A stretch of 6,028 bases of DNA from a virus (IMGVR_UViG_2534681627_000017); one strand, 5' to 3'. Counted from the stretch's first letter, positions 1 through 6,028 are shown. Notes: a model not told the origin generated them from the sequence alone. Made by a program: numbers and translations.

Positions 1-116
1 GGCAGACCTGTATGAGGCGGAATATATGCGTCACCTTCACCAATAAATTCATTAGTTCCGGCCAGCAGATTATAAATTTTTATGGTCCGTGGTTGTTCAC
101 TCATTCTGAATGCCAT
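1..116 (-). CDS. tfa: Tail fibre assembly protein Tfa, N-terminal 39 codons only; gene continues past the window start
   Basis: Minus-strand ATG at 116..114 opens a frame reading [39 protein letters not shown], which matches the lambda Tfa N-terminus as I remember it. The ATG overlaps the stf stop codon (TAATG, shared base at 116). Not in the ORF track because it is cut by the window edge. Confidence 0.8.
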
Positions 117-3100
117 TATGCAAGCCTCACAATGTAGTTAAATGCGATGTTTTTGACGGTGTTTTCCGCGTTACCAGCAGCGTTAACGGTGATGGTATGT
201 CCATGTGAACCAATCGCAACGGAGTGCGTATGAGCACCAATACCGACAGTATGTGCGTGTGCACCTGCGCTTGCAGCAGTACCCGATACAGAGTGCGTAT
301 GAGCGCCTGCAGAAGAAGTGTTAACACTGTATTTAGAATAATCAGGTGATCCACTTCCCGGAGCACCACTGGAACCACCTGAAACAAATGTCATCGAATG
401 GGTATGTGCACCGGCTGAAGCAGCCGTACCGCTAACACTATGGGTATGCGCACCAGTGTTATTCGTGGATTTAGTGCCGTAATCAAACGACGATGTGGTT
501 TTCGTCCCCAAATCAGTACTGGATGCGCTGGCGCTGTGGGTATGCGATTTTATGCCGTCCTGTTCCTGAGACAATACGGCACGACCACTGGCGGGCTTGC
601 CCTTAATCGTCCAGCCACGCATATCAGGGATCACGCCTGACGGATAAGCGGCTGCAAGTTTCGGGTAGGCAGATTTGTCAAAAGTCTGCCCCTGCATCAG
701 GGCATAACCAGACGGAACGGTATCTGATGGCCACGGGATTGGTGCGCCGACTGGGTAGCTTTCTGGTGGAAGATTTTTCGAGGTATAAACTTCTGCCCAG
801 CCTTCCTCAAAACCATAGCCATCTCTTGAGGAACGGTAGAACAGACCTCCATTTCTGTAATGCGCCTTCATCTGCAGGGTCCGGCAACTTCCGACTCCGG
901 TATAGAAGTTAACCAGAATATAGGTGTCGCCAGAGCGGGTGACATTGTAAGCGCCTGATTCGGCATTCCAGGGAACGCCACCATCCGCATCGGCATATGT
1001 ATCCGTTGCCCTTCTGGCAAAAGCAGCCACATGCGCGGCGGTTAAAGTGATATCAGTAGAACCATCAAATGGAACACCGGATATTTTTCTTGCAGTCTGA
1101 AGTTTTGTAGCAGTTGCAGCATTACCAGTGGTGTTCTGATTACCCGTAGTGTTTACACCTGGAAGGTTAATATTTGCAGAACCGTCGAAAACAACTCCAC
1201 CGATAGATCTTGCCGTCTGCAATTTCGTGGCTGTACTTGCATTACCATTCAATGAACCAGTTAATCCACCTGTAACAGACAACGGACCTGAAACTGTTCC
1301 TCCGGTTGTTGGCAGTGCTCCAATATCTAACGGCGTCGGTTTCTGATGTGTGCTATACATCGTATAAACAACACCATCGGTAACGCTGGAAGGCTTACTC
1401 GCTGAATATGTTGGCGATGTATAAATAGAAACTGTCGCATTTGCAGTACAATCCCAATGGATATTTACACGAGTCGCATAATTGCCAATCTCAACGTAAA
1501 TATCATATGTATCGCCGGATGTGTTGATCCAGGCGAAATTCGTTAATCCGACGGCTGTACGCTTCCACAAAGCCCCGGTAATTCCTTTGGGGTTTCCATT
1601 GCCTGCTCGTAGAACCAGTTCTGAAATGCCTGCCTGATGTGGGGAACCGACGTTGTAACCAGCGCCACCAATCAATGCGATGTAAACGATGGAACTCGCT
1701 TGTGGCATGGTAACCGTAGCCAGTTTGAACCACCCAGCCCCGCCAGAGAAAGACATCGTTACTGAATTTAAAGTACCAATATCTTTCGGCGTTAATGTTA
1801 TATCCGCAGTCAGTGCTTTTCCGTTAACTTTTCGGTTAGATGGCACCCTGCTATTCGCATTGTCATTGGCTGCTTTAACTGCTTTTGGCGTTGCGGCCAG
1901 CGATTCACTGATGCTATCAACAGCACTGCTAAGTTTCACAACACCTTTAGTTGTAAGGCTTGCGTCTTCCATCGCAACTGCATCGGCAATCTCTTCAGCA
2001 CGATCAGCAGCAGCTTCCGCACGGGTCGCAGCGGATTCAGCAGCAGTTTTGCTCTGAGATGCTGCCGTCGCACTGCCTGCCGCCTCTGTTGCTTTCGTGG
2101 ATGCCGTCGTGGCGCTGCCCTTCGCTGCTGACGCCTGTCTGGTCGCCTCATCTTTTGAAGCAGACGCAGATGATGCCGATGACGCTGCCGAACTGGCGGA
2201 CGATGCGGCTGCCGTTTTTGAGGATTCTGCACGGGTTTCCGACGCTTTCGCATTCGTTTCGGATGTCTTCGCTGCGGAAGCAGACCTCGCTGCTGCGCTG
2301 GCCTGTACAGCGGCTTCGCCAGCCTTCGTTGTGGCTGTTGAAGCGGACGATGCAGCACTTTCTGCCGATTTTCCGGCGGCGGTGGCACTGGCTGAGGCCT
2401 GCCCGGCACTTGTTGACGCGGCACTGGCAGACGACGCAGCCGCTGTTTTTGAGCCTGCCGCAGCTGAGGCACTCTGTCCCGCTGCCGTTTCAGAAGCCTT
2501 GGCGTTCGTCTCGGACGTTTTTGCCGCCTTCGCAGAATTTGCTGTCGCCGTTGCCGAGGAAGCTGCGCTGCTGGCGCTCGAGGCTGCGCTCGTTTCTGAT
2601 GATTTTGCCGCCTCTTTTGAAGCCGACGCATCCCGGGCTGAGGTGGCAGCTTCTGACGCTTTCGTGGTCGCGGTGGATGCTGAAGTGGCTGCTGATTGTT
2701 GTGACGCTGCCGCATTCGTTTCTGACGTTTTTGCCGCAGCGGCACTGGTGGCCGCCGCGCTTTTTGAGGACTCTGCAGCGGCAGCACTTTTTGATGCTTC
2801 AGTGGCCTTTGCTGATGCCGTTCCTGCGCTGGAAGACGCTGACTGAGCCGACGAAGCGGCCTGTCCGGCTGACGTGCTGGCTGCGCGTGCTGAGCCTGCA
2901 GCATCAGTCGCATGGGTTGCCGCCTCACGTGCTGATGTGCCGGCATCGCTGGCTGACTTCTTCGCGGCTGCCGTGTTCTGTGCCACCGCGGACGCGTTAC
3001 GCGCCACCTCTTCCACCATCAGTTCAAAACGGCGCAGTGCCTCAGGACGGGCATCATCCTCCGTCATGGCACCGAGAAAATCATTCAGCGTACCGGGTCG

Positions 3101-3343
3101 GGAATCTTCATACACGGTGATGGTCCCGGCATGTGACGGCGGGAATCCCTCCACCAACAGAATAACGCTGTACTGACCGTACTCAACGTCCATGCTGTAA
3201 CGCCCGGCTTCATCCGGATTTTCTGAGGCCAGCGTGTTCACCACCACCGTGGTGCTGTTACGTTTTGCTTTCAGCTGGATTGTGCAGTTCTGTACCGGTT
3301 TTCCTGTGCCGTCTTTCAGTACACCTGAAATCTTTACTGCCAT
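116..3343 (-). CDS. stf: Side tail fibre protein Stf, long mosaic variant (~1075 aa)
   Basis: ORF track 116..3349 (1077 aa from a GTG). I place the start at the ATG at 3343..3341 because the product then begins [26 protein letters not shown], as in lambda Stf, and a GGGG run sits 5 nt upstream, whereas the GTG has no spacing to it. The C-terminus ([40 protein letters not shown], HxH repeats, ending [22 protein letters not shown]) is the T4 gp37-like tip of lambda-family Stf. Two [12 protein letters not shown] phage tail-fibre repeat units lie at aa 706-770. Confidence 0.9.
197..553 (-). repeat. Coding array of seven His-x-His motifs in the Stf C-terminal tip
   Basis: Translation contains SHTHS, AHTHS (x4), AHAHT and SHGHT, separated by Gly/Ser/Ala/Thr-rich spacers; the unit GTAASAGAH(T/A)H recurs. 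Matching imperfect DNA repeats (gtgcgtatgagc / gtatgtgcacc) are visible on the + strand. Confidence 0.7.
1970..3001 (-). repeat. Ala/Ser/Thr-rich low-complexity repetitive shaft region of Stf (aa ~117-460)
   Basis: About 340 residues composed almost entirely of A, S, T, K, E, Q and G. The motif AAKTSETNA occurs three times (aa 205, 275, 359; nt 2737..2711, 2527..2501, 2275..2249), with ~20-bp imperfect DNA repeats on the + strand at about 2712-2734, 2505-2526 and 2258-2280. Confidence 0.75.
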
Positions 3344-3354
3344 ATTCACCCCAC

Positions 3355-3380
3355 AAAAAAGCCCGCCTGAACCGGCGGGC
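3355..3380 (-). terminator. Putative rho-independent terminator between lom and stf
   Basis: On the minus strand: GCCCGCC-ggttca-GGCGGGC (7-bp GC stem, 6-nt loop; 3380..3361) followed directly by TTTTTT (3360..3355). It lies 28 nt after the lom stop and 12 nt before the stf ATG. Confidence 0.55.
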
Positions 3381-3407
3381 TGTCATAACACTGTGTTACC
3401 TGGCTAA

Positions 3408-4007
3408 TCAGAATTTATAACCGACACCCACGATGAAACCGTCAGTGCGCCAGTCACCACTGCCGGAGCCTTCATAAGCAATATCAATGGCCACGGATTC
3501 GGTCGGGTTAAACTGCACGCCAGCCCCCCACGCCAGAGACGTGTTGCTGTGGCGACCGTCATCACTTCCGGTCAGCACATCGTGCTTTTTCCCCTTGTTG
3601 TCAGTTACGCGGAGATAATCCCCGGAGAAAGTCGACACGCGGCTGTAAGCCACACCCGCCATCGCATACGCGCTGAACCATTCATTCACGCGCACAGACG
3701 GCCCCGCCATTACGCTGAACCAGCGGTTACGAACGGAATCTTCATGCCAGCGGGTATCGCTGTAACGGGTCAGCTGGCGATTCTTGTCTCCTGCATAGCT
3801 GAATGACGTCACCAGCCCCAGTGTGTCCGTAAACTCATAACGGTATTTCACGTTAATCCCGTTCAGATCATCGCTGCCGGGGACGTTCGTCGAGGCATGA
3901 AGATAGCCCGCGCTCAGCGTGGACTGATGTTCAGACGCCCATGCAGGCGCACCGGATACGGCCAGACAAATGGCTGCGGACAAAATGGCGGCATAAAGTT
4001 TACGCAT
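3408..4007 (-). CDS. lom: Outer-membrane protein Lom (Ail/Lom/OmpX/PagC family beta-barrel)
   Basis: 199-aa ORF with a typical signal peptide (MRKLYAAILSAAICLAVSGAPAWA | SEHQ) and a C-terminal aromatic residue (..GVGYKF) as expected for an outer-membrane beta-barrel. The sequence is near-identical to lambda Lom as I remember it. A GAGAGGT Shine-Dalgarno sits 5 nt upstream of the ATG at 4007. Confidence 0.9.
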   Translation of the reverse strand: MRKLYAAILSAAICLAVSGAPAWASEHQSTLSAGYLHASTNVPGSDDLNGINVKYRYEFTDTLGLVTSFSYAGDKNRQLTRYSDTRWHEDSVRNRWFSVMAGPSVRVNEWFSAYAMAGVAYSRVSTFSGDYLRVTDNKGKKHDVLTGSDDGRHSNTSLAWGAGVQFNPTESVAIDIAYEGSGSGDWRTDGFIVGVGYKF

Positions 4008-4031: not shown

Positions 4032-4055
4032 AAAAAAGGCGTCATTCCTGACGCC
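4032..4055 (-). terminator. Putative rho-independent terminator or attenuator hairpin just upstream of lom
   Basis: Perfect 7-bp inverted repeat ggcgtca / tgacgcc (+ 4038-4044 and 4049-4055) with a 4-nt loop, followed on the minus strand by TTTTTTA (+ 4032-4037 is A6). The + strand has a weaker T-rich tail (cTTTaTT), so it may act in both directions. Confidence 0.5.
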
Positions 4056-4273: not shown

Positions 4274-6028
4274 TTAATACGCCGTTTTTGCGAACTTCAA
4301 AACCATAACCCAGGTTGAATACCAGTATGACTGTTGGTTATTTCCGCTCCCCGGATCGTCATACGCTATACCGTTAAAAATAATGGGCGGAATAATAATC
4401 TGGCGGTCAAAGTTATGATCATCGCTGATGGTGACTGTAACCGTACCGTTTGGTGTTTCCGTGTTACCCCACGTACCGACTTTTTTCGGGAAGGCTTTTG
4501 ATACAGCTTTAACGAAATCTCCTCTGACCTGGGTCGCCTCCAGCATGCCCTTAATCGTACAGTTCTGGTTAATCGTGACATTGTTGAGCGTTCCTGAGTT
4601 CGCATTCACACTGCCACTGATATCCGCATTTTTCGCCGTCAGTCTCCCGTCTGATGTCAGGGAAAATGCCGGAGGATTACCGCCGCTGGTAATGGTGGGG
4701 GCCGTCAGGCGTTTCAGGAACACTTCATTCATGAATATCTGATCGCCCTGACCAACAAACATCGGCTTTGTGTTGCCATTCGCAGGATTAATCATCGCAA
4801 TCCTGTCTGCTGCCAGCAGCACCTGACTCTGCATGCCGTCAGGGGTGTTCTCAATACCGGCACCGATACCCGCAATATAAAGGCGTCCGTCCTGCATCTG
4901 CTGCAGCTTCACAGCCCACATGCTGTTCAGGTTATTATTTGTATCAACCTGAACCTTCTGTATCTGCTGGATCGCTGCACTCTGATCTTCCAGTTTCTTA
5001 TTAACGGTCTGTGTGATTTCATTGCTGACATCCGTTATGGACGTCCTGATTTCAGTCAGGTCAGGCGCAAGCTGACCGTTATCAATCTGCGTCCACAGCT
5101 CCTGAGCCAGATGGGTTTTCCCTATCTCGCCTTTGAAAAAATCCAGATAGCCTGATGCATCATCACTCGGCTGACCGACAGCCTCCACGAATGCCGATTT
5201 GCCAACGGTGTTCACACTGCGAACGTAAAAATAATAATCATGGCCCGGTTTGATATTGATACTGGCGGCTATCCAGTACAGCGCCGTACCAAGATAGCGC
5301 GCTGTGGTTTCAACCTGCCTGATATCCGCAATCCGCTTTTCCGAGAACCAGAACTCAAACTGTACCGTCGGATCATAAACCGCAAGATGCGGCGTGGCGG
5401 TTATCTGAAAATACCCCGGTGTCAGCTCAATCTGCGACGGCGCTGCCGGTGCGGCAATCCGGAACGATACCGATGCCGGATCGCCCTGCTGTCCCCACGC
5501 ATTTACTGCCCGGACCGTCAGCGTGTAACGCCCCAGCGCCAGTTGTGTGAAGCGGTATGTGGTTTCCGCCGTCCGGGCTGTGCTGACCAGCCGCTCACTG
5601 CCGTCATCCGCTGCCACGGTCAGGCGAAGCATAAAGCTCACCCCCTTCACCACCTTCGGCGTGTCCCAGCGGGCCAGTACCTGATATTCCCCGCTGTCTG
5701 CGGTGACTTCGGCAGTCAGGTGCTGCACCGCTGGCGGCGTGACACCATTCACCGTGCCGCTCTGGTCGCCGTCAAAGTGCGCCCCGTTATCCACGATGGC
5801 CTCTTTTTCCGGTACATGCTGCACGGCGGTGATGGCATACATACCGTCGTCGTTCTCACGGATACTCACGCAGCGGAACAGGCGCTGGCGCAGCGTCGGC
5901 AGCTTCAGCCCCCACACGCTGTATCCGGCAACGCCGTCAGGAACACGGCTCACTTTTACCTTCACGCCGTCGGTGACGGACTGGACCTCCACGCTGACCG
6001 GATTGCCACTTCCGTCAACCAGGCTTAT
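4274..6028 (-). CDS. J: Tail tip / host-specificity protein J (central tail fibre), 3' portion; 5' end beyond the window; 3' end apparently truncated by frameshift
   Basis: The frame is open from the window edge at 6028; the track ORF 4274..5992 begins at an internal GTG. The translation (..[84 protein letters not shown]..) is collinear with lambda J as I remember it. The in-frame C-terminus ends ..KFAKTAY*, roughly 64 residues earlier than the homologous sequence runs. Confidence 0.88.

Follow-up and report, generated by a model that had tools for sequence, protein, structure and literature searches.

The His-x-His array of a lambdoid prophage side tail fibre is homologous to the metal-binding needle of the T4 gp37 tip

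The needle at the tip of phage T4 gp37 contains seven coordinated iron atoms along its length, with H929 and H931 as iron ligands; the H929A and H931A substitutions abolish plaque formation, and the T4 segment equivalent to the fibre head described below carries residues required for LPS/OmpC binding (PMC6957217). The needle has been described as six-stranded and antiparallel (PMC9659904), and we took the label "ascending" for one strand of the present fibre from that description. An octahedral Fe site formed by six histidines from three His-x-His (HxH) motifs has been reported for gp37, pyocin fibres and P2-type spikes (PMC6116203). The similarity between the lambda side tail fibre (Stf) and gp37 has been traced to work from 1983 and 1992 (PMC3157838, PMC12617516), the 3' end of T4 gene 37 together with gene 38 is regarded as derived from a lambda-like phage (PMC3157838), and Tfa can replace T4 gp38 for the folding of gp37 (PMC9659904). 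The Stf of Ur-lambda, for which no experimental atomic structure exists, resembles the gp37 tip in both sequence and structure and binds OmpC (PMC12617516). The HxH motifs have been described as conserved in lambda (PMC11705849).

We analysed a stretch of 6,028 nucleotides of viral DNA, hereafter the window, which covers the J-lom-stf-tfa tail region of a lambdoid Escherichia coli prophage. Every gene lies on the minus strand:

4274 to window end, minus strand: J, the C-terminal part of the tail tip protein, with Ig-like and tail-tip domains (Pfam)
3408-4007, minus strand: lom, Ail/Lom family (PF06316, E=5.9e-121)
116-3349, minus strand: stf, the side tail fibre gene, a 1077-residue open reading frame beginning at GTG
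1-116, minus strand: 5' end of tfa, the tail fibre assembly chaperone gene, 38 codons read from the translation and cut by the window edge

Residues of Stf are numbered from the GTG of this open reading frame, although the true start is likely the ATG at 3341-3343 (MAVKISG...), two codons past the GTG and preceded by GGGGTG. The gene belongs to the lambda-type stf genes: it encodes the prophage tail fibre N-terminal domain (PF08400) at residues 3-136 (Pfam, E=1.5e-71) and is positioned after J and lom and before tfa. The annotations of its relatives likewise read side tail fiber protein, Lom, J and Tfa. The ATG of tfa (114-116) overlaps the stf stop codon (116-118) as TAATG, a translationally coupled arrangement, so that a gp38/Tfa-type chaperone gene directly adjoins the tip-encoding end of stf, with its first 38 codons within the window. 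All 38 translated Tfa residues are identical to the N-terminus of lambda Tfa, and the tfa DNA in the window is 100% identical to that of lambda, 2H10 and Kati.

At the DNA level, the window matched lambdoid coliphages such as mEp332, PhiR34_1 and Kati with 94-96% identity over 84-86% of its length, and prophages in the chromosomes of avian E. coli with 98% identity over 98% of its length. Of 5426 complete E. coli genomes, 5223 matched at least a part of it. Given these extensive matches in coliphages and E. coli genomes, we regard the locus as a common lambdoid prophage tail-fibre locus. A scan of the window for promoters and terminators gave counts no higher than the shuffled expectation; its sole noteworthy item was a strong hairpin upstream of stf.

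An earlier note, made from the sequence of the window, had placed seven HxH motifs with Gly/Ser-rich spacers within about 120 residues at positions 197-553. The translation of the minus-strand open reading frame at 116-3349 agreed with this description. Stf contains exactly seven HxH motifs, between residues 936 and 1051 (window positions 197-544, minus strand), and the span 197-553 corresponds to Stf residues 933-1051, with the feature on the minus strand. The motifs are:

536-544, minus strand: HxH motif 1 (residues 936/938)
440-448, minus strand: HxH motif 2 (residues 968/970)
398-406, minus strand: HxH motif 3 (residues 982/984)
293-301, minus strand: HxH motif 4 (residues 1017/1019)
251-259, minus strand: HxH motif 5 (residues 1031/1033)
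224-232, minus strand: HxH motif 6 (residues 1040/1042)
197-205, minus strand: HxH motif 7 (residues 1049/1051)

The 119-residue segment at 933-1051 is rich in Ser, Thr, Ala and Gly (26, 17, 17 and 17 residues, respectively). Its 14 histidines all belong to HxH motifs; only seven more occur in the remaining 958 residues of Stf. Shuffling the segment gave seven HxH motifs in only 7 of 100,000 trials, and shuffling the whole protein in none of 20,000. A chance or low-complexity origin of the array was ruled out by this shuffling together with the homology reported next.

A phmmer search against the PDB matched Stf residues 863-1077 to the T4 gp37 tip structure (2XGF) across the whole chain, with E=1.7e-89 and 303.7 bits (query 80-294 aligned to 27-242 of 2xgf_A). 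A three-way MAFFT alignment including lambda Stf gave 67% identity to T4 gp37 over the tip of about 215 residues. We observed that the seven Stf motifs align one to one with H883/885, H915/917, H929/931, H966/968, H980/982, H989/991 and H998/1000 of T4. The spacings between successive motifs are 32, 14, 35, 14, 9 and 9 residues in Stf and 32, 14, 37, 14, 9 and 9 residues in gp37. The count and spacing proposed from the sequence were thus borne out, save that the head loop is two residues shorter. The proposed equivalence to the gp37 needle is likewise supported, and by outright homology (E=1.7e-89, 67% identity) rather than analogy. The tip with its row of HxH motifs is an ordinary, already known member of the lambda Stf/T4 gp37 family.

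The alignments and comparisons among homologues divide the tip as follows:

605-748, minus strand: collar domain (Stf 868-915; PF07484, E=6.4e-12), directly before the needle
398-562, minus strand: outgoing (ascending) needle strand (930-984), with HxH motifs 1-3
302-397, minus strand: head segment, the putative receptor-binding tip (32 residues, 985-1016), hypervariable among homologues
167-301, minus strand: returning (descending) needle strand (1017-1061), with HxH motifs 4-7
119-166, minus strand: conserved C-terminal end (16 residues, 1062-1077), identical in five relatives

The collar, which lies N-terminal to the needle, scored 45.7 bits with PF07484 against a cutoff of 24, and can be aligned to the collar of 2XGF as well as to the short tail fibre structure 9cuy. 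Immediately upstream of it, residues 789-868 resemble the tail fibre protein S of phage Mu (8ju3, E=9.5e-19). On the outgoing strand, two 10-residue D-x-G-T-K units lie between HxH motifs 1 and 2; on the returning strand, motifs 5-7 are 9-residue G-x-H-x-H-x-V-x-I units. Three stretches of Stf matched the Phage_fiber family (PF03335, "phage tail fibre repeat") with 27.6 bits against a cutoff of 20, which makes the protein a member of that family. The best stretch (963-976) includes HxH motif 2, and the 14-residue PF03335 model itself is a G-x-H-x-H unit. The five relatives in which residues 1062-1077 are identical are T4 gp37, lambda Stf, 2H10, Kati and AV116.

Taking these results together, we consider it very likely that Stf residues 863 (approximately) to 1077 form the same receptor-binding tip as T4 gp37, with a collar, a long needle and a small head. 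For trimer formation, the identity of the metal and the receptor, we argue from the solved homologue, which is 67% identical. By comparison with 2XGF, each of three chains would run outward along the needle through motifs 1-3, turn in the head and return through motifs 4-7. Because the H-x-H of each motif would lie in a beta strand, both of its imidazoles should face the same way, toward the three-fold axis. At each motif, the three chains would together contribute six histidines as the octahedral ligands of one metal ion, giving a row of seven ions along the core, most likely Fe(II). These ions may serve as rivets and as registration points for trimer folding assisted by the Tfa chaperone, and may contribute to high stability. 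The receptor on the bacterial surface would be touched by the head, which connects motif 3 to motif 4. An AlphaFold2 monomer model of the 215-residue tip, built from a 29-sequence alignment, reached a mean pLDDT of 51.6 and a pTM of 0.22. Low confidence of this kind might be anticipated for a protein that folds only when three chains intertwine.

The sequence does not by itself tell which metal is bound, and in the native fibre the HxH motifs could bind zinc or nickel, or no metal. Indeed, the HxH site of T4 gp12 holds zinc in crystals, but this zinc may stem from refolding in a zinc salt (PMC6116203). Iron has been reported in the 67%-identical gp37 needle (PMC6957217) and in the HxH-bearing pyocin fibres and P2-type spikes (PMC6116203), and we therefore judge a metal other than iron, or an empty site, to be unlikely. 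It has also been discussed for HxH-bearing tail fibres that bound iron acts as bait for siderophore or iron-uptake receptors, or that the phage serves as an iron carrier (the "Ferrojan/Trojan horse"; PMC11705849). However, six histidines around the trimer axis would hold the ions inside the core, comparable to the buried iron of pyocin fibre shafts (PMC6116203). OmpC and LPS have been reported as receptors for tips of this family (PMC6957217, PMC12617516), and the window contains no pointer to iron uptake. A role of the iron in receptor capture or transport is therefore extremely improbable here.

To follow motif number across the family, we collected 260 homologues, 217 of which gave a complete tip with readable HxH spacing. 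These tips are related, high-scoring matches (at least about 57% identity) picked by simple sequence anchors, and are thus non-independent samples. The HxH count per tip was seven in 140, five in 32, six in 26, eight in 16, nine in two and four in one. In an alignment of 29 homologues, the histidines of motifs 1 and 4-7 were invariant and those of motif 2 nearly so; in the same alignment, the head segment had no invariant column. The spacing between motifs 3 and 4 ranged from 32 to 70 residues across the 217 tips, with the other spacings being fixed.

Further investigation revealed that the two needle strands vary together. With n 9-residue steps on the return strand, motifs 1 and 2 are 12+10n residues apart, give or take one residue: the spacing is 22, 32, 41/42 and 52 for n=1, 2, 3 and 4, respectively. 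Each 9-residue G-x-H-x-H-x-V-x-I unit added after the head is paired with a 10-residue D-x-G-T-K unit added between motifs 1 and 2. In addition, the head is preceded and followed by equally many 14-residue HxH steps (zero, one or two). This rule was obeyed by 212 out of 217 tips and by all nine architectures with more than one member, and lambda Stf (spacings 42, 14, 48, 14, 9, 9, 9) and AV116 gp37 (42, 14, 35, 14, 9, 9, 9) also fit it. Five tips, each a singleton or from a tiny cluster, depart from it. Among them, P0005 and P0028 have single His substitutions, motifs 2-3 are absent from P0108 and P0230, and the singleton P0084 has lost the head and one module, exactly between two 14-residue modules that are identical in protein sequence. 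Copy number thus does vary across homologues, from four to nine, but only in steps mirrored on both strands of the hairpin. Such paired modules are what an out-and-back hairpin needle with its halves in register requires, and the rule, which is indirect and comparative evidence, therefore supports the structural reading independently.

The earlier note had also suggested that imperfect DNA repeats encode the array and that motif number could vary by slippage. Under that explanation, the array would be a slippage-prone contingency repeat in which slippage or unequal crossing-over readily alters motif number and, with it, the properties of the fibre. The variation in motif number between four and nine among homologues fits such a process, as do the extra modules of lambda Stf and AV116 gp37, which adjoin look-alike units, and the deletion in P0084, which is what recombination between the two 14-residue modules would be expected to produce. 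The DNA itself argues against it. A repeat search of the tip returned only families of 20-21 nt whose copies are 70-90% identical to the reference copy, the 20-nt family having four copies, so the description as imperfect repeats is only weakly true. However, Tandem Repeats Finder detected no array in the tip (116-700), even at a score of 30, the seven 21-nt motif units have pairwise DNA identities of 43-86%, with 14 nt as the longest exact repeated word, and three adjacent 27-nt units are 56-67% identical. We thus found none of the high-identity, head-to-tail DNA repeats that typify a slippage-prone tandem repeat. The 14-residue modules at 966-979 and 1015-1028, which flank the head, are identical in protein sequence and share only 3 of 14 codons, close to the roughly 3.75 that we estimate for random synonymous choice, and their serine codons switch families between the two modules. 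Because the repeat DNA is so diverged, the repeats must be old and are poor substrates for slippage. The extra modules of lambda and AV116 are likewise old, since they are only 56-80% identical to the neighbouring units.

The pairing of changes is a second obstacle to slippage. Gain or loss of a single unit would put the two strands out of register, and a compensating change on the other strand was present in 212 of the 217 tips. Changes mirrored on both strands of the hairpin cannot be produced by one slippage event; two events are needed. Moreover, 140 of the 217 tips retain seven motifs. Motif number therefore does vary, but slippage as its ready cause is very unlikely: the DNA units are too diverged and the changes are paired across strands. 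Motif-number variation in the family arises through rare, paired changes. That the synonymous sites of the two 14-residue modules are fully scrambled might be due not simply to age but to selection against recombination that would delete the head.

The co-variation of the strands, which we observed directly, raises the possibility that the gp37-type needle is a quantised, evolvable ruler, in which the number of axial metal sites (four to nine) changes only by paired modules and the head cassette moves independently between lambdoid and T-even phages. The module pairs may be the 10-residue D-x-G-T-K unit with the 9-residue G-x-H-x-H unit, and a 14-residue HxH unit before the head with its counterpart after it. 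We put this idea forward tentatively and would not yet favour it. We did not find the module rule stated explicitly in the literature examined; it may be implicit in the 2010 paper on the structure of the gp37 tip (Bartual et al.).

Outside the interval from motif 2 to motif 5, the DNA of the tip was 93-100% identical to that of the otherwise near-identical lambdoid phages 2H10 and Kati; within this interval, identity fell to 13-60%. The collapse in DNA identity delimits the exchanged cassette:

about 262-448, minus strand: head plus its two flanking 14-residue HxH modules (approximately motif 2 to motif 5)

Among 50,697 phage records, the closest head cassette was that of gp37 of the T-even phage AV116 (Mosigvirus). 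The two heads share 86.5% amino-acid identity, and the DNA is 80-96% identical from about residue 983 to residue 1033, with flanks of 62-76% DNA identity. The head thus behaves as a cassette, one that is common to temperate and virulent phages. Passages of PMC3157838, which is also our source for Tetart 1996 and 1998, place adhesin exchanges within or near conserved motifs, and the swap of the Stf head fits this published view.

These comparisons bear on whether the HxH-coding stretches double as landmarks for homologous exchange, such that a head swap changes host specificity; this role would complement the structural one. The abrupt change in identity to 2H10 and Kati, from 93-100% outside motifs 2-5 to 13-60% within them, is as expected for such exchange, and so is the presence of the same cassette, at 80-96% DNA identity, in the eight-motif needle of AV116 gp37, whose flanks are only 62-76% identical. 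However, the evidence comes from a handful of pairwise comparisons in which the breakpoints are located to within a few tens of bases, and random exchange followed by selection for in-register products would give the same conservation at the borders. We therefore give this landmark role close to an even chance, though slightly below it, alongside the structural role of the motifs in a gp37-type needle.

As a finding, the array adds little, because it correctly re-identifies the textbook needle of lambda Stf and T4 gp37; the paired-module rule and the head cassette shared across families are modest descriptive additions. Their practical value lies in fibre engineering, in which Stf and gp37 tips serve to redirect phages, and delivery particles derived from them, to new targets. 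Two design rules may follow: needle length may be changed only in paired modules that keep the strands in register, and the head may be swapped as an HxH-bounded cassette, even if one partner is a temperate siphovirus and the other a virulent T-even phage.

Among the known systems, the T4 gp37 tip (2XGF) resembles the Stf tip in its order of collar, needle and head, in its last 16 residues and in its seven equivalent HxH motifs, and both proteins need a gp38/Tfa-type chaperone, whose gene lies just downstream. The Stf tip belongs to a siphovirus side fibre that starts with a PF08400 domain, whereas the T4 tip belongs to the distal half-fibre of a myovirus. In addition, the Stf chaperone gene overlaps the stop codon (TAATG), whereas that of T4 begins 27 nt later. 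The head loop of Stf is two residues shorter than that of T4 and largely different in sequence, and therefore probably presents a different receptor contact surface.

The Stf of Ur-lambda, encoded by orf401 and orf314 in lambda PaPa, lies in the same J-lom-stf-tfa order as the gene in the window and has in common with the present Stf the N-terminal attachment domain, an Ala/Ser-rich shaft, the collar and the needle. The lambda Stf tip (orf314) is 75% identical to the present one, with all seven Stf HxH motifs aligned and an identical Tfa N-terminus. By contrast, lambda Stf has eight HxH motifs (42, 14, 48, 14, 9, 9, 9): its return strand is longer by one 9-residue HxH unit, its outgoing strand by one 10-residue SFDYGTK unit and its head by 13 residues. 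The head of the present Stf differs from both the T4 and the lambda heads. Upstream of the collar, we detected no similarity between the lambda tip and the present one (13-49% identity in the alignment), and the pre-collar stretch of the present protein is akin to tail fibre protein S of phage Mu (8ju3). The present Stf is about 300 residues longer than lambda Stf, which we take to be about 774 residues long.

AV116 gp37 has eight HxH motifs (42, 14, 35, 14, 9, 9, 9) compared with seven in Stf, the flanks with 62-76% DNA identity are its collar and needle, and AV116 is a virulent phage of 168 kb. The collar domain is common to Stf and short tail fibres (9cuy). In R-type pyocin fibres, P2 gpV-type spikes and T4 gp12, three HxH motifs around a three-fold axis form an octahedral six-histidine site (PMC6116203). 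These proteins have one such site in a different fold, whereas Stf is predicted to have seven sites stacked in a hairpin needle.

The Stf protein, encoded on the minus strand (window 116-3349; 1077 residues), is some 300 residues longer than lambda Stf, which is about 774 residues long. Two features of its body lie upstream of the tip.

1910-2932, minus strand: Stf shaft (residues 140-480)
1088-1231, minus strand: two copies of a ~40-residue unit, with a 19-letter protein sequence (residues ~700-775)

The shaft is 38% alanine and 23% serine, and its DNA gives rise to spurious open reading frames of considerable length (336, 386 and 249 aa), both in alternative frames and on the complementary strand. 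The two ~40-residue units are followed, at residues 789-868, by a domain related to the phage Mu tail fibre protein S (structure 8ju3). The duplicated unit together with this Mu S-related domain marks Stf as a mosaic, with fibre modules drawn from different phage groups.

Within the needle, a 14-residue HxH module flanks each side of the head, the variable segment between HxH motifs 3 and 4.

413-454, minus strand: first 14-residue module (residues 966-979)
266-307, minus strand: second 14-residue module (residues 1015-1028)

These modules are identical as protein but share the same codon at only 3 of 14 positions, the codon family being switched at all three serines. Their synonymous sites look fully randomised, which could mean that the modules are old, or that selection disfavours recombination in which the head is lost. 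In one homologue, P0084 (a singleton in the set of homologous tips), the missing part is precisely the head together with a single 14-residue module. Because its junction falls inside a repeated 17-letter sequence, P0084 is a headless needle; this form may stem from a genuine deletion or from a collapse during sequence assembly.

The ends of stf and the intervals between neighboring genes carried further signals.

114-118, minus strand: overlap of stf stop and tfa start (TAATG)
3341-3349, minus strand: stf start region, with the ORF-finder GTG and an ATG
3360-3381, minus strand: GC-rich strong hairpin, then a T-run, between lom and stf
4038-4055, read on the minus strand: second hairpin, stem and T6, between J and lom

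The TAATG overlap suggests that the fibre and its chaperone are translationally coupled; all 38 Tfa residues present in the window are identical to those of lambda Tfa. At the other end of stf, the GTG start falls within GGGGTG, which looks like a ribosome-binding site, and the true start is likely the ATG at 3341-3343 (MAVKISG); the Pfam N-terminal domain starts at residue 3. The lom-stf hairpin ends ~10 nt upstream of this ribosome-binding site. Both hairpins are terminator-like, with overall counts in the underlying scan not above shuffled expectation, and both sit inside what is regarded as a single late operon.

At the J C-terminus (window 4274-4500, minus strand), the receptor-binding domain PF12421 was matched over only its first 47 of 135 positions, so the central fibre tip may differ from the LamB-binding domain of lambda J.

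In the closest phage relatives, 2H10 (locus L003, 3824-4414) and Kati (locus L004, 3869-4459), a DNA invertase gene lies directly 3' of tfa; the window stops short of the matching position. This arrangement hints at an invertible tail-fibre segment in the 2H10/Kati group, like those of Mu Gin or P1 Cin.
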